A model generated the notes under the pieces. It ran no database searches and had not been told where the DNA came from. It saw only the letters and a program-made list of their open reading frames with translations. The translations under genes were made by a program, and so were the position numbers. 64,000 nt of DNA, taken from the NCBI GenBank assembly GCA_965140585.1, contig OZ223264.1:384001-448000 (forward strand), in the 5' to 3' direction. The DNA is from Spirochaetia bacterium. Its GTDB lineage: Bacteria > Spirochaetota > Spirochaetia > UBA9216. Positions 4,814-50,577 of the stretch are shown piece after piece (position 1 is the stretch's first letter; each line of letters opens with the position of its first letter).

Positions 4814-6217
4814 ATGAATATTAGAAAATTAATTATTGTAAGCGTTCTTTTAATGATCGCCGTCTTGTTTAATTGCTCAGATCCTACCAATCCCTCGCAG
4901 GACAGTACAGGAGACTCTACCTCAGAAGATACCTCCGGTGGAGAAACAGATAGTGTAAGTTCAATACTGGATAAATCCTGGACTTCTGCAGAATCGATTG
5001 TAGAGCCGTCAATTGCCGGTGATGACAGTGTAAATCCTGAGGTTGCATACTCTGCAAATGGTACTGCAGCAGCAGCCTGGGAAGTTGATGGCGGGCTTTG
5101 GGTTAATACATTTGACGGGACGGCATGGGGCACCTCTGAATGTTTGTGGGGCGGTGCTTACGGAGATTATCTGGGAGGATATGATATTGATATCAGTTCC
5201 AGTGGTAAGGCTGTAGTTGTCTGGAGCGGGGAGCTTGATAGTGAATCATATGACACGGTATGGTGCCGTATCTTTGACGGAACAGGCTGGAGTGCAGCAG
5301 AACGGCTTTCGGTTACAGGCCTGTCATTTCCTCAGGCGTATTCGCCGGATGTTGCATACAGCCCGTCAGCTGATGAGGCTATTGCGGTCTGGAAGCAGAA
5401 TGATGATGTTTATGCTGCAGTATATGAAAGCGGCAGCTGGGATACTCCTGTAATACTTAATACGGATAGTCTGGATTCTGCCTGGGATCCCGGCATTGCC
5501 TATAATGGTGAACATACTGCTGTTGCGGTATGGCTTCAGGATACTTACAGCTCCTCTGATTACAGGGATGCGTATGCTGCTCTATATGACGGGTCTGACT
5601 GGAGTGCTCCGGTAAATATTGAAGACGGAGATAACATTGACTATGAAATTTCACTTGCTGCTGATTCTTCCGGAAATGCTGTGGCTGTGTGGGAGCAGTA
5701 TGACGGAAGCCGATGGAATATTGGTGCTAATACTTTTGACGGCAGCTCATGGGGAGATTCAGCATTTATATGCGATGACGGTTCTGATATAGATGGTGCT
5801 GTTGTTGATATTCTTCCGGAAGGAAAAGCTGTTGCCGTCTGGAAATATTATAACGGTTCATCAGAACCAAAGATATGTGTAAACATTTTTAATAGTACAA
5901 ACTGGACCGGAAAAGAAGAAATCGGATCCGCCGACAGTTTTACCGATTCTCCAGAAGTAGCTTCTGATTCCTCCGGAAACGCCGCGGCTGTATGGGACTA
6001 TGAAAATTCAGATACAGGAATGAGAGGAATATACCATTCATTGTATAACGGGTCTCTCTGGAGCAGCGAGTCTTCAATAGATGTAAGCAGTGAGGCCCAG
6101 ACTACGGGACTTTGTATCAAATTCAATAAATCAGCAGATGAGGCATTGCTTCTATATTCGGAAGAAGGTGAAGGATTAAATGGATATATGCCGGTGGTCT
6201 ACTCCATGTTGAAATAG
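4814..6217 (+). CDS. Acidic lipoprotein with Trp-containing repeats (probable beta-propeller)
   Basis: Lipobox VLFN-C, Ser/Thr/Asp linker, repeated ~50-aa units (G-x-A-V-A-V-W ... F/Y-D-G-x-x-W). Confidence 0.8.
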   Translation: MNIRKLIIVSVLLMIAVLFNCSDPTNPSQDSTGDSTSEDTSGGETDSVSSILDKSWTSAESIVEPSIAGDDSVNPEVAYSANGTAAAAWEVDGGLWVNTFDGTAWGTSECLWGGAYGDYLGGYDIDISSSGKAVVVWSGELDSESYDTVWCRIFDGTGWSAAERLSVTGLSFPQAYSPDVAYSPSADEAIAVWKQNDDVYAAVYESGSWDTPVILNTDSLDSAWDPGIAYNGEHTAVAVWLQDTYSSSDYRDAYAALYDGSDWSAPVNIEDGDNIDYEISLAADSSGNAVAVWEQYDGSRWNIGANTFDGSSWGDSAFICDDGSDIDGAVVDILPEGKAVAVWKYYNGSSEPKICVNIFNSTNWTGKEEIGSADSFTDSPEVASDSSGNAAAVWDYENSDTGMRGIYHSLYNGSLWSSESSIDVSSEAQTTGLCIKFNKSADEALLLYSEEGEGLNGYMPVVYSMLK

Positions 6218-6241
6218 CCCATTATTCGATCAGGAATTAAA

Positions 6242-7717
6242 ATGAAAAAGAATACAATCTCAATTTTTATTACTCTAATTTTATTGATTTCCATCATCAC
6301 CTCATGTGTTACAAATCCTGTTACATACGAAGATGCTGTCGAAGAAAAGAAACCTCTGGGTGTATTGCCTACTATCATTTTAGGTTATGTGCCGTTTGTA
6401 GGTCAGCTGGTACAGGGCGAGTTTATTGAAGCAGGAGTGCTGGCCGGGGCAATGGTGGGCGGGACGGCCCTGGGAATCGGGACTATGGATATGGACACCG
6501 GTGAGATGTCTCCCTTTGGATTTGTCGGCGCATCGATGATGGCAGGCGCTATCTTTTACAGCTGGATAGACGGCCTGGTTACAAGTATACAGCGGAACAA
6601 GCAGTATAAGCAACAGACTGTCGAATATGCGAAAGACAGGGCTGCCGAGTTATTCATTGCCGGTGAAAGTGCTGAAGCAAAAAGTCTGATTGCCCAAAAA
6701 GTCAAAACGCAGGAAGATCGTATCGAGGTTGCATATGAAATAGCCCCTGAAGGTTGTGCAGTAGACGTTCCTGATATTGTAAATATGACTAACTTGAACA
6801 ACCTTCATTATACTCACTATAACAACCGTTCAATATCCTCCCTTGATACAAAGATCTCGCCTGAGGGCTTTGAGTACATTTTTAAAATCAGACCGAAAAC
6901 GGATGTTAAAAGTTTTGCTGTCTGTGCTGCGCTGCAGAATGATGCATCGGCCTTGTCACAGTTTGCAGAATATGCGGAAACATACGGAATCACAAAAGAA
7001 GTTGTAAGCATAGGAAGCATTATTCTTTCTGAAAATAAAAATACAGATTCACTTTTTAGTTTTTATGATTATTTAAGATCAGAAGCCCCCTTGATGTATC
7101 TTGATATGGATGAAATTGAAAAGCGCAGGATTGATATTAATGAACGCGATAAATACGATCAGGCCGGATGGTTTCTTAAAAATGAGCAGTGGGATCAGGT
7201 GATTGCAATTATTGAAGAACTGTCACGGGAGTCCGGAGCTGATACTTTTCAAACCACAAGGCTGAACGTTCTAAAGGCTGCGGCAGGGTTGTGTATTCTT
7301 GAGACTATTCCGGAAAAAATGAGAAATATTGATCTGCTTATTCATGACCTTGAAAAAGAGGCTGCTGAAAAGGAAGGGCCAGAGCTTGAAGAGCTTAACA
7401 GTTATATTCAGGAGCTGAAGGTTCTTTCTGACTCCGGGTATAAATCAAAAGCTGAAATTGAAAATTTAAATAATCTTTTATACATAATCTCAGTAAAAAA
7501 TGGCGGGGTTTCATTTCTGGGTATGACTCTGAATAACCTGCTTGATAATGAAGAATTGTCCGGTCTTGAGAAATGGCAGGAACTTGAGAGAATGTCAGCA
7601 GACAGAAGCGCAATGATATCCTTGTCAGCTATATTGTTTCCGGATCTTGAACTTTCTGCTGCGGAGATAGGATCTGTAATTGATGAAATGCATACTTATG
7701 ATTATGTATTCTTTTAA
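6242..7717 (+). CDS. Hypothetical lipoprotein with Gly-rich hydrophobic segments and a helical C-terminus
   Basis: Lipobox IITS-C; hydrophobic stretches at about aa 40-115; AGGA SD. Confidence 0.75.
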   Translation: MKKNTISIFITLILLISIITSCVTNPVTYEDAVEEKKPLGVLPTIILGYVPFVGQLVQGEFIEAGVLAGAMVGGTALGIGTMDMDTGEMSPFGFVGASMMAGAIFYSWIDGLVTSIQRNKQYKQQTVEYAKDRAAELFIAGESAEAKSLIAQKVKTQEDRIEVAYEIAPEGCAVDVPDIVNMTNLNNLHYTHYNNRSISSLDTKISPEGFEYIFKIRPKTDVKSFAVCAALQNDASALSQFAEYAETYGITKEVVSIGSIILSENKNTDSLFSFYDYLRSEAPLMYLDMDEIEKRRIDINERDKYDQAGWFLKNEQWDQVIAIIEELSRESGADTFQTTRLNVLKAAAGLCILETIPEKMRNIDLLIHDLEKEAAEKEGPELEELNSYIQELKVLSDSGYKSKAEIENLNNLLYIISVKNGGVSFLGMTLNNLLDNEELSGLEKWQELERMSADRSAMISLSAILFPDLELSAAEIGSVIDEMHTYDYVFF

Positions 7718-9308: not shown

Positions 9309-11501
9309 TTATCTGTTTAATGCAATAAGCTCTGATCTTCCGGTTACTTCAAGTTTCCGGAAGATAGAGGTGTTGTAATTACTAATTGTCTTTACTGATA
9401 AATTTAACTCCGCAGCAATTTCTTTATCACTCAGACCCTTTCTAAGCAAAGCTGCAATTTCACATTCACGCGTGGTCAGTTCTTTTTCACTGCATACTTT
9501 TTTGAATTCATTCCCGGGCTGACGGCTGTGTTCGCTGCTGTAGTTGTCGATAAACTCGATCACTGAATTCTTCAAATTCTTTTTATAATTATCAGTGCTC
9601 AGTTTAACAGATTCGATTATTGCCGATGCCTTGGCTTTGAGTTCTTCGATTGAAAAAGGCTTGCCGATGTAGTCTACAGCTCCGTCATTAAGAGCTTCAA
9701 TTTTCTCATCTGCAGAATTACGTGCTGTTAAAAATAGAAAAGGGATTTTTTTATATTCAATGTTCTTATGAATCTCCCGGTAAAGCTGCCGGCCATCCAT
9801 CACCGGCATCATAACATCGCTTATAATTATTGAAGGTTTAAACGATTTTAAAATTTCCAGAGCGAGCTGTCCGTTAGAGGCTGTTGTGATTGTAAAAGTA
9901 TCAGATAATTCATCCTTAAGGTAATTCAGCAGGTCCTTATTGTCTTCAACAAGCAGTACAGAATGACTGTTACGGCTGAGAGCCTCCTGGTCGGTTGTCT
10001 GAGGATTGTCTTCAGCGATAGCGGTTTGCAGATCCGCCCTGTATGCAGACAGCATTGAATCGGGATGGCTTTTTTCTTTTTGAATATTTTCATCCCCAGT
10101 ATCCGGAAATATCAGTGAAAATGTACTTCCCATTCCCGGACTGCTGTTAAGTTTTATTTTTCCTCCATGCAGTTCCATTATCCCTTTGACAAGAGATAAG
10201 CCAATTCCGGCGCCTCTCCATAAAGAGCTCTCAGCAGTTTCGACTTGCTGAAACCTGTTGAATATCTTCTGCTGCTGTTCAAGCGGGATTCCCGGGCCGT
10301 TGTCAGAAATATCAATATTGATCTGATTATGATGCCTTGAAGCTTTCAGGTTGATCTTTCCACCGGGCTGTGTGAATTTTATCGCATTACTCATCAGATT
10401 TAATATAGCAGTATCAAAAAGATGCGGATCAGCGCATAATTTTAAACCCTCATCAGTTTCTGCCGCAATGGTAATGTCTTTTTGCTCGGCTGCTGACTGT
10501 AGTTCTGCGGCGAAAATTGTCAGTTTGGCCTCAAGATTCATTTCTGCCAGTTTAAGAGTAAACTTATGCTGCTCCAATTGCGACAGTTCAAGCAGGCCAT
10601 TAATCTGTTTTATCAAGCGCAGATTATTACGCTCGATTATTTCAAACTGACTGTCGGCAGCCTCTATTGAATTGCCCCATCGGCCGGTTCTAAGCTGATG
10701 AATTATACCATTGATTATAGTTACCGGAGTTCGCAGTTCATGTGAGATATTCATCATAAAGTCGTTTTTTGCTATATCCATCTGCCGAAGTTTAAGCTTT
10801 TCCCTCTCTGCGAGTGCATGGTTCACTTTCAATTCGGTCATCTCAGAACCGAGAATAAATGGAAACAGCAGCCCGTTAAAAACCATCCCGGCAAGGAATA
10901 AGAAATTTCCATCAAGCAGCGGTGCCGGGATGCCTGCCCCGGAAACTGCATCCTTGAAAATTCCCATTGCGGAAATTGCTCCGAGAATCATCAGTGCTTC
11001 GAAAAAAATAAGAGTTCCTGCCTTTTTATTACCCCCGATCCTAAGGATTATTAAAGGCACAAGCAGGATTAAAATGACACCGCTTGCGGAAATATCCATT
11101 ATGGAAATAATCAGTTTATTTATGGATCCGGCTACAATTGGATGGATGATTGAAAGAATTATAAAAAAGATGCATAAACTGGCTACAATATTTCTTCCTG
11201 TCTTAAGAGCCTGCCTGTTTTTAATATTCAGATAATTGTATGAAAAAAGGGTGAAGGCAAAAAGAGATAGCCATGAACCTATGTATGGTTCAACTGTCGG
11301 TATGAAAAAGTGTGTATAGAGATTGCTTACCGCATTTATAAAGGCTCCTGTGAAAAACAGGGCCAGATCAAGATAATTGCGATCACGGCTTTTAATGCCG
11401 GTGAACAGGCAGTTCAGAACTGCCATGAGAATCATTCCAAGAAACAAATTGGCAGTGGTCAAATAAGGTCCGGGACTTAATAACTTGGGTATAATCAACA
11501 T
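9309..11501 (-). CDS. Hybrid membrane sensor kinase: ~7 TM, HisKA, HATPase, REC, LuxR HTH
   Basis: ISHELRTP, NLMSNAIKF, DNGPGI, GAGIGL; REC LLVEDN...SDVMMP...KPF; LTTRECEIA...GLSDKEIAAELNLSVKTI; promoter geometry favours ATG 11501 (track 11510). Confidence 0.93.
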   Translation of the reverse strand: MLIIPKLLSPGPYLTTANLFLGMILMAVLNCLFTGIKSRDRNYLDLALFFTGAFINAVSNLYTHFFIPTVEPYIGSWLSLFAFTLFSYNYLNIKNRQALKTGRNIVASLCIFFIILSIIHPIVAGSINKLIISIMDISASGVILILLVPLIILRIGGNKKAGTLIFFEALMILGAISAMGIFKDAVSGAGIPAPLLDGNFLFLAGMVFNGLLFPFILGSEMTELKVNHALAEREKLKLRQMDIAKNDFMMNISHELRTPVTIINGIIHQLRTGRWGNSIEAADSQFEIIERNNLRLIKQINGLLELSQLEQHKFTLKLAEMNLEAKLTIFAAELQSAAEQKDITIAAETDEGLKLCADPHLFDTAILNLMSNAIKFTQPGGKINLKASRHHNQINIDISDNGPGIPLEQQQKIFNRFQQVETAESSLWRGAGIGLSLVKGIMELHGGKIKLNSSPGMGSTFSLIFPDTGDENIQKEKSHPDSMLSAYRADLQTAIAEDNPQTTDQEALSRNSHSVLLVEDNKDLLNYLKDELSDTFTITTASNGQLALEILKSFKPSIIISDVMMPVMDGRQLYREIHKNIEYKKIPFLFLTARNSADEKIEALNDGAVDYIGKPFSIEELKAKASAIIESVKLSTDNYKKNLKNSVIEFIDNYSSEHSRQPGNEFKKVCSEKELTTRECEIAALLRKGLSDKEIAAELNLSVKTISNYNTSIFRKLEVTGRSELIALNR

Positions 11502-11569
11502 GTGAAACATTTTATTTTAGAAAATTACTGCGGGCAAGGACTTTTTTACATATAGGTATATTCGCAAAG

Positions 11570-12016
11570 CTACTGCGTATATTCTTCAAGCCGGGAAAAA
11601 GCCCTGTCCCATGCATGGATAAAGAACTGCCTTGCCTCTTCCCATTCTTTTGAATCTCCCCATCCGGTGTGAATCAGAGTTGACTGGGTTCCGTTATCCC
11701 TTGGAGAGAAGAAAACTGTAACATTGGTTAGAGGACGTAATTTGTTCATTTCGGCGGCAAATTGAGGAGGCCCCTTCCATTCAAAGTTAAGGTAGTAAGG
11801 TGATTCAATATCAAGTATTCTACATCCTATTGTGCTGTTTTCTTCAGGCTTATCCGGATTCCAGTATAATTCATATTTTCCATGAACTTTTGGTTCGACA
11901 TCTGCTTTTTCGGTTAGCCAAGTTTCGAGTGCTTGATTCTCGGTGAACAGTTTAAATACCTGCTCGGTAGAGCAGTTCAGAATTGATTTTTTAACAATGA
12001 TTCTATCCATATTCAA
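11570..12016 (-). CDS. SRPBCC/AHSA1-like (START-fold) protein
   Basis: EQVFKLFT...LETWL, GTQSTLIHTGW, C-terminal W...L helix. Confidence 0.85.
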   Translation of the reverse strand: MNMDRIIVKKSILNCSTEQVFKLFTENQALETWLTEKADVEPKVHGKYELYWNPDKPEENSTIGCRILDIESPYYLNFEWKGPPQFAAEMNKLRPLTNVTVFFSPRDNGTQSTLIHTGWGDSKEWEEARQFFIHAWDRAFSRLEEYTQ

Positions 12017-12069
12017 TACACTCCCTGTATATTACTAAGTTACTCAATAATACCGGGGGAGTGAAATGA

Positions 12070-17640: not shown

Positions 17641-17689
17641 TGCCACGGATTAAAAGCGGGTATGCGCAGGGCAGAGATTTACACGGATT
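17641..17689 (+). repeat. Dispersed ~50-nt intergenic repeat, copy A
   Basis: GCCACGGAT-N8-GGTATGCGCAGGGCAGAGATTT-ACACGGATT; 22-nt core identical to copy C. Confidence 0.85.
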
Positions 17690-36398: not shown

Positions 36399-36405
36399 AG
36401 CCTTC

Positions 36406-37695
36406 CTATATTAACGAAAGAAATATCTCCGCCGGAATGTATTCAGGAAACAGGTTTCCCGGTGTTTTGAAATTATTCAGAACAAGAGCATATTCGTAGG
36501 GTGTGAATTTTTCCTTCTCTCGCTCTGTAATAAAAAGACTTATTGCATTACCTATCTTTGTAAAAAACGATTCCGATTCCCCGTCTGTCGGCTTGCTGAC
36601 GCTCTGTTTTATTTCGGCATATTTAGCTTTGATGGTCTCAATCAGTTCCTTGAACGTATAGAGTCTGTTTCTCTCAATATCAAGCGATGCCGCAGCCGCG
36701 TCGATCAGGCAGTATATAAGATCCTTGTGAAATTTCTGTTCCGGCGGAAGGGTATTGCGGATAAGTATTTCGATGTTTTTTTCGCTGATTTTTTTTGTTT
36801 CATAATCCAGCAGATGTGAGTATTTCTGAACATTCTCCATGTCGAACAGTTTTCTGGTAAGATTTTCTTCAAGGTGACGATCAGGCTTAAAGAAGTAATT
36901 TATACCTTTGACTTTATCAAATACCTTAAGGGTATCCAGGTAGCCGATGTTTATATTTCTTTCAGCGGAATTGGGATCGAAGTCCAGTATTCCTCCCAGG
37001 TCCATGGAGTTTTTAATGTAGATTGTATCAGTGCCTGCAATGTCAGGTCTCCTGTTTACTCCGAGACCGGAGATGTCCACGACAATGATTTTTTTGTATC
37101 CTCGGTGCTTCATCATACGGTGCGGTATGTTATCCCAGATACCGCCGTCGGCGTATTTTTTACCATTGATCTCGGCGTTTTTGAAAACCGCTGGAATTGA
37201 TGCGCTTGCAAGCAGGTAGTCGGGCAGGGTTCCCGGCTCCATTGCATCGAGAAATATCTCTTTTGAAGAAAGGCTGTTGACCTCAACCGTGACTATGCCT
37301 AGGTCTCTGCCTGATTTTCTGATGTCGTCTTCTCTGATGGTTTCTTTTAGCATCCTGTAAAGCGGGGCTGTATCAAGTCCGAGGTTGCGGATATCCAGAT
37401 TGAGGTCCGATATTCGATTGAATGCTTTGAATGAGAATTTGAGTTTGCCGTTTTTAAGCATTCCCTCAGGTACTCTGATTATCCGTTCAAGGGTCATCTC
37501 TGTCCAGAGTTTTATTCCCAGCTCATATTCGTCCTGGGCTATTATTGCTGCATTGAGTGCTCCGACTGATGTCCCTGCAACTGCGTTTACTTCTATCTTA
37601 AGTTCTTTCAGAGCCTTCCATGCTCCAATTTCATATGCCCCTCTCGCGCCGCCGCCGGCAAGGACTAAACTGTATTCTGTTTTTTTATCAAACAT
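36406..37695 (-). CDS. Patatin-like phospholipase
   Basis: GGGARG, GTSVG, ASASIP, DGG; promoter TTGACA-N17-TATATT upstream. Confidence 0.93.
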   Translation of the reverse strand: MFDKKTEYSLVLAGGGARGAYEIGAWKALKELKIEVNAVAGTSVGALNAAIIAQDEYELGIKLWTEMTLERIIRVPEGMLKNGKLKFSFKAFNRISDLNLDIRNLGLDTAPLYRMLKETIREDDIRKSGRDLGIVTVEVNSLSSKEIFLDAMEPGTLPDYLLASASIPAVFKNAEINGKKYADGGIWDNIPHRMMKHRGYKKIIVVDISGLGVNRRPDIAGTDTIYIKNSMDLGGILDFDPNSAERNINIGYLDTLKVFDKVKGINYFFKPDRHLEENLTRKLFDMENVQKYSHLLDYETKKISEKNIEILIRNTLPPEQKFHKDLIYCLIDAAAASLDIERNRLYTFKELIETIKAKYAEIKQSVSKPTDGESESFFTKIGNAISLFITEREKEKFTPYEYALVLNNFKTPGNLFPEYIPAEIFLSLI

Positions 37696-37775
37696 AGGCC
37701 ACCTTTTACAAAAATATAGGCTCCTGTGAAAGGATTGTCAATCAAAGAAATTTGTTCGGCCGCCGGGTTGAGTTT

Positions 37776-37845
37776 TGGCCACGGATGTGTATAGGGTTTG
37801 CGCACAGCAGCGAACTTGTATAGGGCTTGGGCAGGGCGGTGATTA
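37776..37845 (+). repeat. Dispersed repeat copy B (degenerate, with internal ~30-nt tandem duplication)
   Basis: TGGCCACGGATGTGTATA is identical (18 nt) to copy C; TGTATAGGG(T/C)TTG(C/G)GCA occurs twice. Confidence 0.75.
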
Positions 37846-37861
37846 GTGGGAGTAAGAAAGG

Positions 37862-37985
37862 CCTCCTTCAGTCCTTATATTTTACATCCCGTTTACAGGA
37901 ATTCAAGGGCAAGGTGAAAACGGCTTTGCCGTTCCCTTGAGTTCCTGTAAAGCGGGCCTGTGGTATAACTGAAAATTTCAGGAGG
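37862..37985. other. Long imperfect fold-back structure upstream of the GxxExxY gene
   Basis: 37888-37909 pairs with 37934-37956 (22 bp, one mismatch, one bulge); inner hairpin AACGGC-TTT-GCCGTT; outer CCTCC and TTCAGT pair with GGAGG (the SD) and ACTGAA. Confidence 0.8.
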
Positions 37986-37992
37986 TACGCAA

Positions 37993-38355
37993 ATGCTGTA
38001 CAAAGAATTAAGTTATCAAGTCATCGGCGGCTGCATGGCAGTTCACAAGGGTCTGGGGCCTGGGCTGCTTGAGCAGTGTTATCACAATGCATTGTTTTAT
38101 GAGCTCCGGGCTGCAGGCTTGGGTGTCGGGTATCATGTACCGTTTAATGTTCATTACCGTGGGCAGGTTGTGGGGGAGTATTTTGCAGACCTGGTTGTAA
38201 ATAATACTATTATTCTTGAATTAAAATCAGTAAAGGCAATTAATGACAGCCACAAGGCACAGTTAATTAACTATCTGCATATTAGCGACTGTCGTGTGGG
38301 TTACCTGCTTAACTTTCAGGGCTTGCAGCTTGAATGGCAGCGCCTGGTTATTTAG
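37993..38355 (+). CDS. GxxExxY protein (PD-(D/E)xK nuclease-like)
   Basis: LGPGLLEQCY, ADLVV...ELKSV, AQLINYL, GYLLNF; GGAGGT SD. Confidence 0.95.
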   Translation: MLYKELSYQVIGGCMAVHKGLGPGLLEQCYHNALFYELRAAGLGVGYHVPFNVHYRGQVVGEYFADLVVNNTIILELKSVKAINDSHKAQLINYLHISDCRVGYLLNFQGLQLEWQRLVI

Positions 38356-38663
38356 AATCCGGTGAATAGAAGGTCAATCGCGGAAGTTACCTCGGTTCTG
38401 AGATGTGAGAGATTGATAATACAGTCACCTAAATAATGGATGGGAATGGCGGCCATTTCTGAAATGAAGGCAATATACGGCTGATTATTTATTTCAATTT
38501 CTATATGAATTTTGCTGATGTATTGACTTTTAGTATTTACGGCTTTTCGTAGAGGAGCAACGATACGTGTTGCAAGTTCGGAGATTTCATCCGCTTGCAG
38601 GATTATTAGATATTCTACATCTTTGGTATTGTTCTTATTAATAACTATATCAAATTGCCCCAT
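38352..38663 (-). CDS. ccdB: CcdB-family toxin
   Basis: MGQFDI, YLIILQAD, TRIVAPL, C-terminal AIDLLFTGF; start overlaps the ccdA stop. Confidence 0.88.
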   Translation of the reverse strand: MGQFDIVINKNNTKDVEYLIILQADEISELATRIVAPLRKAVNTKSQYISKIHIEIEINNQPYIAFISEMAAIPIHYLGDCIINLSHLRTEVTSAIDLLFTGF

Positions 38664-38881
38664 TAAAATGGTCTCATCCCGTCGCTGAATACACCATTTT
38701 TGTTTATCTGTTCATTGTATGCTTCTATGCTTTGACGGTTTTCTTCTTCCCATTCCTTTTTTTTGATTTTTGAAAGCTCCTTTTTTAAAGCCTCTTCAAG
38801 TATTTGAGAAAGAACAAGATTGTGCGCCTTTGCCGCCTCAAATATCTCATTCTGTATTGTAACGTTTGTTCTAGTTTTCAT
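38663..38881 (-). CDS. ccdA: CcdA-family antitoxin
   Basis: RTNVTI (RHH), LSQILEEAL, WEEENRQSIEAYNEQINKNGVFSDGMRPF; promoter geometry favours ATG 38881. Confidence 0.9.
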   Translation of the reverse strand: MKTRTNVTIQNEIFEAAKAHNLVLSQILEEALKKELSKIKKKEWEEENRQSIEAYNEQINKNGVFSDGMRPF

Positions 38882-38916
38882 GTGTATATAATAACACATT
38901 ATATGTGTGCATGCAA
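38882..38916 (-). promoter_or_regulatory. ccdAB promoter with palindromic operator
   Basis: TTGCAT-N17-TATTAT-N6-ATG; spacer contains ACACAT-N3-ATGTGT. Confidence 0.75.
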
Positions 38917-39061
38917 TTCCGGGGAAAAGATATGCTGCATGATCCTGCAGCTGAATTCATTAAAGGACCTTATGAAGGAGCACATGTACTGATAATGATA
39001 ACATCATCGACCCGATCGTTCGGATGAAAATTGAGTTATATTTATGAAAAATTGAGAACTT

Positions 39062-39805
39062 TTACTTCTGAGTATATTTACAATTGGGATAGTTAGAACA
39101 TCCATAAAATCTACCATATTTCCCATTTCGCTTAATTAAACGGCCACCACATCTGGGGCAGATGAGTAGTTGTTTCTTCTTTTCTCGGATATACAAGGTG
39201 TTATTAACGTTATAGATATGCTCAACATCTGCATGTTTTTCATGGATTCTGGCTTGATTGATTCGATTTACTACTTTCTCAAGATTATCAATACATATAT
39301 CATGTTGTTTACTTATAGATTTTATAACTGTTTCCAGTTGATGTTTGTATATGACAGGTGTTGCTGTAGTAACATTCTTTAATTCACCACTACCTACAAA
39401 GACTACGATAGGAAAAAAGGTAATGCCTTTAAAATCGCTTAGAACCTCTTTTAAGGCGTAGATGTGTGCCCAGTTCTGTTTGACAGGGTTAACTAACTGA
39501 TATTTACTCTTGTAGAAAGTTTGAGTCCAGTGCTCTGAGTTTTCATGACCATGAATCCAACCTCTATAATTTTTGGTTTCAATAACAAAAATGCCATATT
39601 TTGAGACTACTACATGGTCAATTTGGCTACTTCCTCTGCTTGTTTGAATAAGAACATCGTTTAGAATTGTATATTCATTCTGATTGAGTTTATACAGTTG
39701 GCTTGCTACTTGTGATTCCCCAGCCTTGCCTTTATAGTCAGCACTTTTAAATAGAAATGGAATAATCAGAATAATTAATAAAATGATTGCAATTAAGAAG
39801 ATCAC
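39062..39805 (-). CDS. NERD-domain nuclease-like protein with N-terminal TM anchor and topoisomerase-type C4 zinc finger
   Basis: GKAGE, QIDHVVVSKYGIFVIETKNY, NPVKQN; CPRCGG...GRFYGCSNYPNC. Confidence 0.93.
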   Translation of the reverse strand: MIFLIAIILLIILIIPFLFKSADYKGKAGESQVASQLYKLNQNEYTILNDVLIQTSRGSSQIDHVVVSKYGIFVIETKNYRGWIHGHENSEHWTQTFYKSKYQLVNPVKQNWAHIYALKEVLSDFKGITFFPIVVFVGSGELKNVTTATPVIYKHQLETVIKSISKQHDICIDNLEKVVNRINQARIHEKHADVEHIYNVNNTLYIREKKKQLLICPRCGGRLIKRNGKYGRFYGCSNYPNCKYTQK

Positions 39806-40076
39806 CCAAATATTACCTCATTAAGTCTTTGGTAAACATTTTTAAAATTTCTTACCATATCTTAAATGTATCATTCGTAGTGTATGCAAGCAATTTTATC
39901 TGAAAAGAAAATAATAACGAATTATTGTTCTGAGATGAGATCAGATTAGATACCCGATTTCGGTGTGAAGTAGCTTATGAATTGGGACAGGTGACTCAGT
40001 TGAAAATGTTGATGTGAAGTTAATTTATTTGTGGTATTGTTTCATTATAAAAGTTATTTAAAAAGTGGAGATTAAC

Positions 40077-40961
40077 GTGAAAAAGTTGTTGCTTTTTGTT
40101 GTTTTTATATTTATGTCTACGATTTTTATTAACGCTCATCCATATACTAACCAATTAGAACAGGGGCAGCATAGAGGGAGCTTTTGGTTTCAGGCCATAC
40201 AGGGATATGAAGGTTATGTAGATCCGATTTTGTCATATTCTGAATCAGAATATATACTCGAGGGATATTCTTTACAGTCATTCTCCGCTTCATTCAATAC
40301 AGGATTCGCGGGTTCTTATATTTTCTACGAATATGGAATATATAATTTTCTTTCAGCAGGAATTAAGCTATCATTAGTAGATTTTATTGTACATGGATTA
40401 ACTGAGGATGTATGGTCGTTTGATGGCTCTGCGTTTATAAACATAAGTATTTTCCCGGATATTTACATACTCTTTTTTGATGAACCAAATTTTGACTTTT
40501 TTAATGTTTCGATGCAGGTAGAAGCTAATCGTGCACCTCTTTTTACCGATCAGAATTATAACTTTTATGGATATGGACTTTATAATATTTATTCTACTTT
40601 ATCGCTGGGGATAGATTTAATTAATACCTCAGATTTTTATATCTCAACCTGTTTTGATTTTAAACATATTTTATGTATTGCTGATGAGAATTATGGCGGG
40701 TATCTGTCCTTTGAAAGTGTGTTTGGAGAATATGATTCAGATTTGATTTATGAATATACAAATGGCAATAGATTTGCTTTTTGTCCCGGTATAGAGCTTG
40801 GTTGGAAGCATTTTTCAATGTTTGCTGGGTTTAATTTTAAATTATATGATGATTCTAAATATTCTGTACGTAATTATTTAAGTCAGGCGAATATTTCTGA
40901 ATATTTTACTTCTTCAAATGATATCACACAATTTGAATTGGAATATGTTTGGACGTTCTGA
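40077..40961 (+). CDS. Exported hypothetical protein, probable beta-barrel, very AT-rich
   Basis: Signal peptide; aromatic-rich strands; ends ELEYVWTF; GTG 40077 follows GGAG. Confidence 0.7.
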   Translation: MKKLLLFVVFIFMSTIFINAHPYTNQLEQGQHRGSFWFQAIQGYEGYVDPILSYSESEYILEGYSLQSFSASFNTGFAGSYIFYEYGIYNFLSAGIKLSLVDFIVHGLTEDVWSFDGSAFINISIFPDIYILFFDEPNFDFFNVSMQVEANRAPLFTDQNYNFYGYGLYNIYSTLSLGIDLINTSDFYISTCFDFKHILCIADENYGGYLSFESVFGEYDSDLIYEYTNGNRFAFCPGIELGWKHFSMFAGFNFKLYDDSKYSVRNYLSQANISEYFTSSNDITQFELEYVWTF

Positions 40962-42214: not shown

Positions 42215-43040
42215 TCAGGATTTTTGCGGTACCGACCGGCGTTCATGCCCTTCAGGGCGGGGCAGCTTTGGTTAATGTGCACGGCATGTTTGACCGGGAT
42301 AAATACGACGGGCAGCATATTGCCTGAGACGGGAATGTACTTCACAACCAGCATAATCTTTCACAAATGGCTGATGCAATTCATTTCTATGGCGAAAAGG
42401 TTTCCATGGAAATTCTCGGTGAAAACAGGGAAGGCTACTATGATGTTTTTGAGAGCCTCGCAGGTTTTGCATCTTCGACTCCTTCGAAAGAGATGACTCC
42501 TGAGATTATGAATGAAATTGCGGAAAGTTATGCCGATACCGCGGCTACTGCCCAGCGCTGCGGTTTTGATATATTTATGATTCATATGGCCTATTCTTCA
42601 CCGGGGCCGACACGATTTATTTCTCCACACTTTAATAAAAGAACAGACGAATAAGGTGGACCAATTGAGAACCGCCTTAAATTTCCTATAATGGTTTTCG
42701 ACTGTATCAAGGTTGAGGATACTATTGTGATGTCTAAAATCCTTGAAAGGCATATTGATATGCTGCATTTTCACGGCGGCGAGGTGTGGTCTGCCCCTCC
42801 GACATGTTTTGCCGGCTTCGCTTCCTTTGTTCTTGTTGCCGAGCAGATCAAGAAAGCAGGTTCGCCCATTCCGATTGTAGCAATAGGCTGAATTCAGGAC
42901 CTTGATGAAATAGAAGAAATTCTTTCTACCGGTAAGGTTGATATTGTCTCGATGGGTCGGGGATGAACTTCTACCAGACCGCGATAAAGGTTTTAATGAT
43001 CGGCGACTGTCAAAAGATTGGCAACGTATCCTCTGCAATC
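42215..43040 (+). pseudogene. Decayed NADH:flavin oxidoreductase (OYE family)
   Basis: Motifs interrupted by stops: MADAIHFYG...GFDIFMIHMAY...FISPHFNKRTDE*GGPIENRLKF...IVAIG*IQDLDEIEEILSTGKVDIVSMGRG*; boundaries approximate. Confidence 0.88.
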
Positions 43041-50527: not shown

Positions 50528-50577
50528 AATCTGTGCAAATCTCTGCCCTGCGCATACCATATACACATCCGTGGCCA
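50528..50577 (-). repeat. Dispersed repeat copy C
   Basis: Minus strand TGGCCACGGATGTGTATATGGTATGCGCAGGGCAGAGATTTGCACAGATT; a further partial head (TTTTGACCACGG) at 50604-50615. Confidence 0.85.

Follow-up and report, generated by a model that had tools for sequence, protein, structure and literature searches.

Background

In plasmid F, single strands of the Frpo1 and Frpo2 elements form stem-loops in which -35 and -10 promoter boxes are rebuilt; they are needed for leading genes to be expressed early, and conversion to duplex DNA switches them off (PMC9849209; PMC11541004). A fold-back that resembles these elements lies directly upstream of a gene of the GxxExxY nuclease family in a Spirochaetia bacterium (assembly GCA_965140585.1, contig OZ223264.1). 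It is examined here within a stretch of 64,000 nucleotides (nt), positions 384,001 to 448,000 of the contig, which is referred to as the window; positions given without a locus or contig name count from its first letter. The fold-back, which together with the gene is called the cassette, belongs to a conserved, covarying and gene-specific family that is confined so far to Spirochaetia. Comparative sequence data suggest, tentatively, that it may well be an Frpo-like promoter for single-stranded DNA (ssDNA) that serves the nuclease gene from a chromosomal position and not from a conjugative plasmid.

A comparable principle operates at the ssoA-type single-strand origins (sso) of rolling-circle plasmids and at the minus-strand origin of filamentous phages, where a folded single strand mimics a promoter for the host RNA polymerase. 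The RNA-polymerase-dependent sso hairpins make a short primer for the complementary strand, on replicons that are regularly single-stranded. The sso of ICEBs1 constitutes a related example (PMC4595007). The fold-back shares with these origins the potential use of a folded single strand as a promoter mimic by the host RNA polymerase, but its predicted product is a messenger RNA (mRNA) with a Shine-Dalgarno (SD) sequence and a start codon, and no replicon is evident. Among the papers listed on the subject, those on ssDNA promoters concern plasmids or integrative and conjugative elements, to the extent of their accessible text, and a literature search whose coverage ends at subscription journals returned no description of the hairpin element.

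A conserved fold-back family upstream of GxxExxY genes

The preliminary description of the locus had placed a large fold-back in front of the SD sequence of the gene, and this is what the window contains: an imperfect inverted repeat of about 125 nt, the outermost pairs of which join CCTCC to GGAGG, the latter 7 nt 5' of the start codon (Table 1). Folded as RNA, the plus strand reaches -60.3 kcal/mol, against -33.6 +/- 3.5 kcal/mol for 200 dinucleotide shuffles of the same interval (z -7.6), none of which equals it. Both strands are also stable beyond their shuffles when folded as DNA, with -33.1 kcal/mol (z -7.3) for the plus strand and -31.7 kcal/mol (z -6.3) for the minus strand, the template of the GxxExxY gene. 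No Rfam family matches at its gathering score anywhere in the window; in the E-value mode, the best match within 37650-38050 is mir-3718, a generic hairpin match with 29.5 bits versus a gathering score of 78.

The source genome (4.85 Mb in 10 contigs) contains six PF13366 matches. In a blastn search of this genome, the 296-nt upstream region matched nothing but itself, the inverted arm within it and, over 38 nt, one repeat unit. Divergence puts the paralogous hairpins out of the reach of blastn, and the family was recognised first by eye and afterwards by a covariance model. By eye, the same design precedes every paralogue. It runs from a CCTCC-like motif through a T-run, ATTnTAC, a variable stem, GTCAAGG and CAAGGCAAG to a variable small hairpin. 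Beyond this hairpin come CCTTGAC, a complementary stem in which a single base is bulged, a stretch of variable sequence, AAAA, GGAGG and, last, ATG. Analogous fold-backs with compensatory changes are found 5' of the paralogues in the own genome and of homologues in other genera.

Covariation of the arms was measured in two alignments. In the first (A1), made of 15 hand-picked copies from the own and related genomes with helices written by hand, 85.6% of the cells are paired versus 70.4% after shuffling, and none of 500 shuffles reaches the observed values. The main helix of A1 has 17 of 23 pairs changed on both sides, and sliding the partner by 1-3 columns reduces pairing to 35-54%. The second (A2) is a model alignment of 50 rows, which leaves 45 distinct copies once two reverse-strand and three identical rows are set aside; over 47 distinct rows, 84.6% of its cells are paired versus 65.9% in shuffles and its covariation score is 0.458 versus 0.167 (0 of 500), pairing figures that lean towards structure because A2 was fitted to the model. 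The upstream regions of GxxExxY homologues, which the preliminary description had singled out for such a comparison, thus share a conserved structure with covarying arms in both alignments.

The covariance model of the hairpin family (R1) finds five strong matches in the own genome, which score 59-130 bits and all lie immediately 5' of PF13366 sequence, and a relic at a gene fragment. Matches on the reverse strand score 27-37 bits. The copies are dispersed over five contigs. Within the bacterial family, R1 yields 29 matches in 9 of 11 genomes, all of them directly 5' of PF13366 matches as judged by coordinates. A sample of the class Spirochaetia has matches in 18 of 151 genomes, which represent at least eight named families, and a phylum-wide sample of 150 other genomes has none. 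For 41 of the 45 distinct copies, GxxExxY-homologous sequence follows on the same strand, from -2 to +282 nt after the hairpin; the four exceptions are low-scoring. A scan of the genomes of 185,579 species for an exact pattern produced 42 stretches, which is about the number expected by chance according to a hand estimate. Four of these, all titled Spirochaet-, were confirmed by R1, and a fifth spirochete stretch, located at a contig edge, was not. The same pattern had no match among the viral contigs scanned; such exact patterns miss most diverged copies of the hairpin.

The base of the stem would also suit a different function. The pairing of CCTCC with GGAGG is conserved, the SD/anti-SD helix being paired in 83.5% of cells, and in an RNA leader it would keep a potentially harmful nuclease from being translated before the stem opens or is cleaved (e.g., by a double-strand-specific RNase). 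The mRNA would be supplied by read-through or by an unrecognised upstream promoter, and the divergent promoter of the 5' arm described below would constitute a separate duplex feature (transcriptional interference or a leftward RNA). Such a leader could coexist with an ssDNA promoter. The conservation of this helix and the stability of the sense RNA are consistent with the SD sequestration that the preliminary description had listed as one alternative; as the explanation of the family it is a serious rival, although less likely than an ssDNA promoter.

A conserved promoter on the opposite strand

The distal arm, read on its minus strand, carries TTGAAT-N16-TAAAAT, a pair of boxes already pointed out in the preliminary description and independently recovered by a promoter scan. 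In the family, the opposite-strand promoter takes the form TTGACn-N15/16-TAnAAT, with a spacer of 16 nt in 28 of 42 rows and of 15 nt in 14. When the criteria of the promoter tool, widened to spacers of 15-18 nt, are applied to the 45 copies, promoter-like sites are present on the minus strand of the hairpin in 42 of them and on its sense strand in three. The 150 nt of upstream flank contain sense-strand sites at four of the 45 copies, which represents the background level because the minus strand of the same flanks scores seven of 45. The scan of 37700-37990 in the window detected no sense-strand site. The sole conserved promoter of the cassette therefore points away from the gene in duplex DNA.

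The boxes are recognizable position by position. Read on the minus strand, the ATTnTA block contains 2.0 (T), 1.85 (A), 0.24 (n), 1.59 (A), 1.43 (A) and 2.0 (T) bits of information, and GTCAA, read as TTGAC, contains 2.0, 2.0, 1.15, 2.0 and 0.97 bits; the arm facing the -10 block has only 0.1-0.6 bits per column. The stem columns vary and covary, and the box columns are fixed. Such conservation is the pattern of the -10 and -35 hexamers of sigma-70 promoters. Another invariant element of the family is the AAAA run, located 8-10 nt 5' of GGAGG.

An RNA leader that sequesters the SD sequence is structurally possible, but these data leave it with no conserved sense-strand promoter from which it could be made, either in the upstream flanks or in the hairpins. 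The nearest upstream open reading frame (ORF), according to crude ORF calls, is co-oriented with the cassette in 20 of 44 loci, from which read-through might come, and divergent in 24, the window included, so that read-through cannot be the general source of transcription. The leader also leaves unexplained why the 5' arm has the profile and fixed spacing of a sigma-70 promoter while the sequence facing its -10 box varies freely.

The promoter of the 5' arm might instead serve a leftward noncoding RNA made from duplex DNA across the repeat unit to the left of the hairpin (37776-37852), a partner or regulator of the nuclease, in which case the inverted repeat would have some other role. The near-consensus boxes in 42 of 45 copies agree with this idea, as do the location of the repeat unit directly downstream of the promoter at many loci and the absence, on the minus strand of the window, of an ORF with a start after the SD-like GAAGGAGG. 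The sequence left of the hairpin, however, is unconserved except for the repeat unit, itself variable in distance and presence, and in the window the transcript would enter the patatin gene, which has its own promoter. A leftward RNA, moreover, would begin beyond the hairpin and include neither of the two arms, and hence cannot account for the covariation between them. The leftward small RNA put forward in the preliminary description is thus possible as a product of a near-consensus promoter and improbable as the reason for the element.

The proximal arm of the window copy contains, as described earlier, TTGAGT (37937-37942) and, 21 nt further, TATAAC (37964-37969) with TGG before it. This extended -10 does not hold as a feature of the element: it is not kept even in the same-genus orthologue (L025).

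Predicted geometry of the template-strand fold

When the minus strands of 43 copies are folded with ViennaRNA and RNA energy parameters, the paired fraction is 84% in the -35 box, 81% in the spacer, 39% in the -10 box and 67% in the next 7 nt. The start site, taken as 7 nt past the -10 box and mapped via its pairing partner, falls 1-9 nt 5' of GGAG in 30 of the 38 copies with a value; the rest lie at 13, 13, 14, 15, 104, -4, -11 and -45 nt. The mapped start coincides with the invariant A-run, and in the window copy it is located at about 37968 (+/- 5 nt).

The two strands of the element are not equivalent. With DNA parameters, the minus strand is the more stable one in 33 of the 45 copies and the plus strand in 10, with two ties and a mean difference of 1.2 kcal/mol (Wilcoxon p 1e-4, which is not a true probability as the sequences are related). 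The minus strand is likewise more stable in 34 of 45 copies with RNA parameters, and it folds better in 27 versus 9 of the 38 representatives that are less than 70% identical. Of the 38 copies with an extractable apical loop, 14 have C-GNA-G on the minus strand, five C-GNNA-G and nine C-ANA-G; GNA loops on the plus strand number zero. Triloops of the d(GNA) type with a C-G closing pair, and likewise GCGNAGC and GCGNNAGC mini-hairpins, have been described as exceptionally stable DNA structures (PMC3201870, PMC13037366). Neither the better folding of the antisense strand nor its purine-rich triloops are explained by an RNA leader.

The way in which an ssDNA promoter would operate here can be outlined from this geometry. 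In the duplex state, the only conserved promoter of the cassette lies opposite the gene and would fire away from it. Once the minus strand is single-stranded, the 125-nt inverted repeat would fold; its 3' arm, in which TTGACn-N15/16-TAnAAT is read away from the loop, would act as the non-template strand, and its 5' arm, which runs on into the antisense of the gene, as the template. As a result, gene-sense RNA is what a polymerase moving off the loop would be expected to make. RNA polymerase would bind the paired -35 box and spacer, meet a largely pre-melted -10 box and transcribe into the gene. Initiation in the invariant A-run, a few bases 5' of GGAGG, would produce a short and translatable leader that has the SD sequence and lacks its CCTCC partner. 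The return to duplex would stop transcription from the hairpin, and a read-through RNA with the whole hairpin would have its SD sequence paired. Potential sources of ssDNA include DNA uptake, a single-stranded intermediate of the repeat-flanked cassette, and replication or repair gaps. Every functional step of this outline is inferred, including the use of the folded form by the host polymerase, the start site and the trigger of single-strandedness. In a stricter form of the proposal, the GxxExxY gene would lack any promoter active in duplex DNA, and its transcription would depend entirely on one that assembles in the folded single-stranded template, which could make the cassette a sensor of strandedness; this is conceivable, and we regard it with more reserve than the promoter itself.

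Observations that weigh against a single-stranded promoter

Expression from ssDNA, the first possibility raised in the preliminary description, is favoured by the comparative data (the opposite-strand promoter in 42 of 45 copies, the unpaired -10 box and the better folding of the template), but the context that it presupposed is missing and several other observations count against it. Known ssDNA promoters are defined by their place in the leading region of a conjugative element, a place that the locus does not share. The 24 flanking ORFs scanned (window 21-54 kb; about 15 kb around the locus) include no transfer genes and encode ordinary chromosomal functions (transporters, a glycosidase, Phe-tRNA synthetase etc.). 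Relatives of the GxxExxY protein occur on only eight plasmid records, all typed as non-mobilizable, and on none of the phage records. There is no homology to the Frpo elements: run without filters against 16 kb of F leading-region sequence, R1 scores 14.3 bits at best, with an E-value of 0.48. A search of sequencing runs with window 36400-39900 turned up three contig-level runs of a single study and no RNA run.

Other objections concern the element itself. Its spacer of 15-16 nt falls short of the 17-nt optimum. A near-consensus promoter would also fire leftward in duplex DNA, which makes a conventional role possible. In the window copy, the sense strand is by a small margin the better folder, and the hexamer scan is an imperfect detector: in its strict form it misses the validated Frpo boxes. 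Three features of the same kind agree with an RNA leader: the conserved CCTCC/GGAGG pairing has the look expected of an RNA translational block; about eight copies have CTTCGG at the sense-strand apex, the equivalent of a UUCG tetraloop at the RNA level; and G-T (or G-U) wobbles, 3.1 in the plus fold and 2.6 in the minus fold, do not disfavour the sense strand. Since the wobbles are equal on both strands and have no bias, counting them was rejected as a strand test. Replication orientation was also rejected as an account of the ssDNA source: according to the GC skew, three cassettes of the own genome are co-directional with replication and two are head-on, a number too small to be of use.

Comparison with described hairpin systems

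The proposed ssDNA promoter resembles the Frpo/ssi elements of plasmids F and ColIb-P9 in three respects. A stable, long and imperfect hairpin is located on the template strand of the downstream gene; the -35 and -10 boxes, in the predicted fold, lie in the stem on the non-template arm and face the gene; and transcription is predicted to occur only in the single-stranded state and to be off in the duplex. There are also differences. The hairpin is about 125 nt long here versus about 330 nt in F, its boxes are much nearer to the consensus, and it is found beside housekeeping genes of the chromosome rather than in a conjugative leading region. Furthermore, it serves one small nuclease gene, with five dispersed copies per genome, and only in Spirochaetia so far.

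The F plasmid itself (NC_002483, L126) contains hairpins of about 330 nt on the transferred strand at 6165-6660 and 11500-12050, in the upstream regions of ssb and the gene at 64032, with folding energies of -121 and -138 kcal/mol. A strict scan for -35 and -10 boxes detected no site in either of the two F hairpins, and thus such scans can miss validated single-strand promoters.

Leader hairpins that sequester the SD sequence have in common with the fold-back the conserved CCTCC that, at the foot of a long stem, is paired to GGAGG. They differ from it in that the stem here also holds a conserved and correctly spaced promoter on the opposite strand, with no conserved promoter to make the leader.

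In integron attC sites, inverse core sites of the form RYYYAAC ... GTTRRRY are located at the base of the folded structure, in cassette arrays beside an integrase. An attC site was considered for the fold-back and rejected: the base of its stem reads CCTCC / GGAGG, the consensus is without attC cores, and the copies are scattered over five contigs.

The nuclease, its neighbours and the flanking repeat

The assignment of the gene to the GxxExxY nuclease family, made earlier from its translation, is borne out over the full length of the protein by PF13366 (PDDEXK_3; E 7.6e-39, 133.1 bits versus a cut-off of 22, residues 4-117) and TIGR04256 (GxxExxY; E 3.4e-40, 137 bits versus a cut-off of 35). 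An AlphaFold model of the 120-residue protein, built from an input of 28 sequences, has a predicted local distance difference test score (pLDDT) of 94.9. Its nearest folds according to Foldseek are SSO0001 (E 3.8e-4), lambda exonuclease (1.5e-3) and Hjc resolvases, all of them PD-(D/E)XK enzymes. We take SSO0001 to be a Cas4; in the Foldseek table, Pcal_0546 is the sole entry labelled by that name. Among 28 GxxExxY proteins, Glu27, Asp66 and Lys78 (E27, D66, K78) are invariant and Glu76 (E76) is at least 90% conserved; by analogy, these four are candidate catalytic residues. A sequence search of the PDB with the protein identified no solved relative. In PMC8934634, GxxExxY appears in an annotation remark.

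Table 1. Elements of the cassette in the window, numbered from its first letter.
Feature	Position	Strand	Remark
Flanking repeat unit (GGCCACGGAT ... TATAGGG ... GATTAG)	37776..37852	+	
Whole fold-back	37861..37986	both	Family member 5' of GxxExxY genes; model R1 scores 116.9 bits for the window copy
CCTCC at the stem base, complementary to the SD sequence	37862..37866	+	Downstream duplex if read as ssDNA; anti-SD if read as RNA
-10 hexamer TAAAAT	37879..37884	-	Promoter scan and family information profile
Spacer of 16 nt, paired to the other arm	37885..37900	-	Other arm has one extra bulged G at 37952
-35 hexamer TTGAAT (family consensus TTGACn or TTTACn)	37901..37906	-	Promoter scan
Conserved unpaired block between main stem and apical hairpin	37910..37918	+	Family consensus CAAGGCAAG
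Variable apical hairpin	37919..37933	both	Window copy: 6-bp stem, loop C-AAA-G on the minus strand
CCCTTGAGT, partner of the -35 box	37934..37942	+	TTGA core invariant across the family
Invariant AAAA run	37972..37975	+	Predicted mRNA start if the folded minus strand is transcribed
GGAGG ribosome-binding site	37981..37985	+	
GxxExxY gene, 120 aa	37993..38355	+	PF13366 / TIGR04256, PD-(D/E)XK fold; start codon ATG at 37993

Directly downstream of the gene, on the minus strand (38352-39805), are located ccdB (103 residues), ccdA (78 residues) and a gene for a protein of 247 residues with NERD and topoisomerase-type zinc-ribbon domains. The ccdB and GxxExxY genes are convergent and their stop codons overlap. 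The preliminary description was correct about these neighbours, and its view of them as cargo of the system does not apply in general: GxxExxY genes with hairpins occur in many different neighbourhoods, and a role of ccdAB/NERD as a part of the system was rejected because other copies have unrelated neighbours.

The upstream neighbour in the window is a divergent patatin gene on the minus strand, with its own promoter from 37741 to 37713. A terminator-like hairpin with a T-run is located on the plus strand at 37754-37768, just left of the repeat unit, and would halt rightward transcription before it reached the cassette. Two further ORFs of the window, 40065-40961 (+, 298 residues) and 42601-43038 (-, 146 residues), have no Pfam match at an E-value of 1e-5.

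The repeat unit left of the hairpin (GGCCACGGAT ... TATAGGGT ... GCGCAGGGCAGAGATT ... CACGGATT) is intergenic and kept across genera, with further copies at G000:C5:111913 (-) and at L041 (G005). Solo copies occur in the window at 17642-17689 (+) and 50528-50577 (-). CACGGAT-type units adjoin the cassette, although the bare heptamer CACGGAT is not over-represented, with 7 occurrences versus 5.4 expected in the window and 328 versus 470 expected in the genome. At six loci (L056, L043, L063, L074, L057 and L042), a unit of the 48-nt class is present on both sides of the hairpin and gene as a direct repeat, which resembles the duplication of an attachment site. A single unit lies to the left of the window cassette; to the right, where the stop codon meets ccdB, there is none. 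For the C9 cassette, the search for a clean empty site was negative: synteny with a same-genus genome ends at the cassette edge, and the far side differs.

With such repeats in mind, the fold-back might be a structure-specific recognition or recombination site of a repeat-flanked cassette, comparable to attC sites or to hairpins cut by single-strand nucleases, its likeness to a promoter being secondary. Direct repeat units at several loci would suit such a site, as would the conserved palindromic core GTCAAGG / CCTTGAC, the conserved bulged base, the variable apical hairpin and a nuclease fold that comes closest to those of Cas4, lambda exonuclease and Hjc. A precedent for a small nuclease paired with dispersed hairpin sites is the Ssn/NTS system (PMC11893778). 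The position-specific conservation of the -10 box and its fixed distance of 15-16 nt to TTGAC, however, fit a promoter specifically. Apart from four low-scoring matches with no detectable GxxExxY sequence after them, searches of the own genome and the bacterial family found no hairpin without a gene, in contrast to dispersed recognition sites, and the stem base has no GTTRRRY-type core. Such a site is accordingly a quite improbable basis for the family, at least as much so as a leftward RNA.

Some copies of the cassette depart from the common form. At G000:C7:465940-467390 (L005, L006, L035), two copies are adjacent. In one of them, an internal deletion cuts the gene short after 19 codons, although the hairpin scores best of all (130 bits); the other copy is a gene fragment with a relic of the hairpin. 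L042 (G008:C47, hairpin 1501-1674) has about 45 nt of extra sequence in its fold-back, after the 5' stem and before the TCAAGG box. L065 and L076 (G104:C333, 940-1064 and 2227-2351) are identical hairpins 1287 nt apart and look like a recent tandem duplication; the gene was checked after the first of them only. In L060 (G000:C5:109092-109290), three further perfect hairpins, all short, separate the element from the ORF; GGAGG is missing, and the gene match begins 61 nt past the element.

Implications

To our knowledge, all ssDNA promoters demonstrated so far belong to leading regions of conjugative plasmids, and the case for most candidates is their similarity to Frpo. The fold-back described here is an unrelated, compact and covarying element with near-consensus boxes, which recurs before one gene family in the chromosomes of another phylum; comparative support of this kind is usually wanting for Frpo-like candidates. 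Should it indeed be an ssDNA promoter, it would be the first family of such promoters outside conjugative plasmids, strandedness would be more widely used as a gene switch, and an element of about 125 nt would provide a portable test object.

The consequences would extend to the nuclease. The GxxExxY family reaches up to a dozen matches per genome in the spirochetes searched and is present in several other phyla, and we know of no role for its proteins. If the fold-back is an RNA leader instead, it still constitutes an undescribed conserved leader motif of the GxxExxY family. If it is an ssDNA promoter, it would offer the first functional clue for these proteins, which would be made when DNA is single-stranded, and the nuclease would then act at a single-stranded stage, such as DNA uptake, the movement of its own cassette or gap repair.

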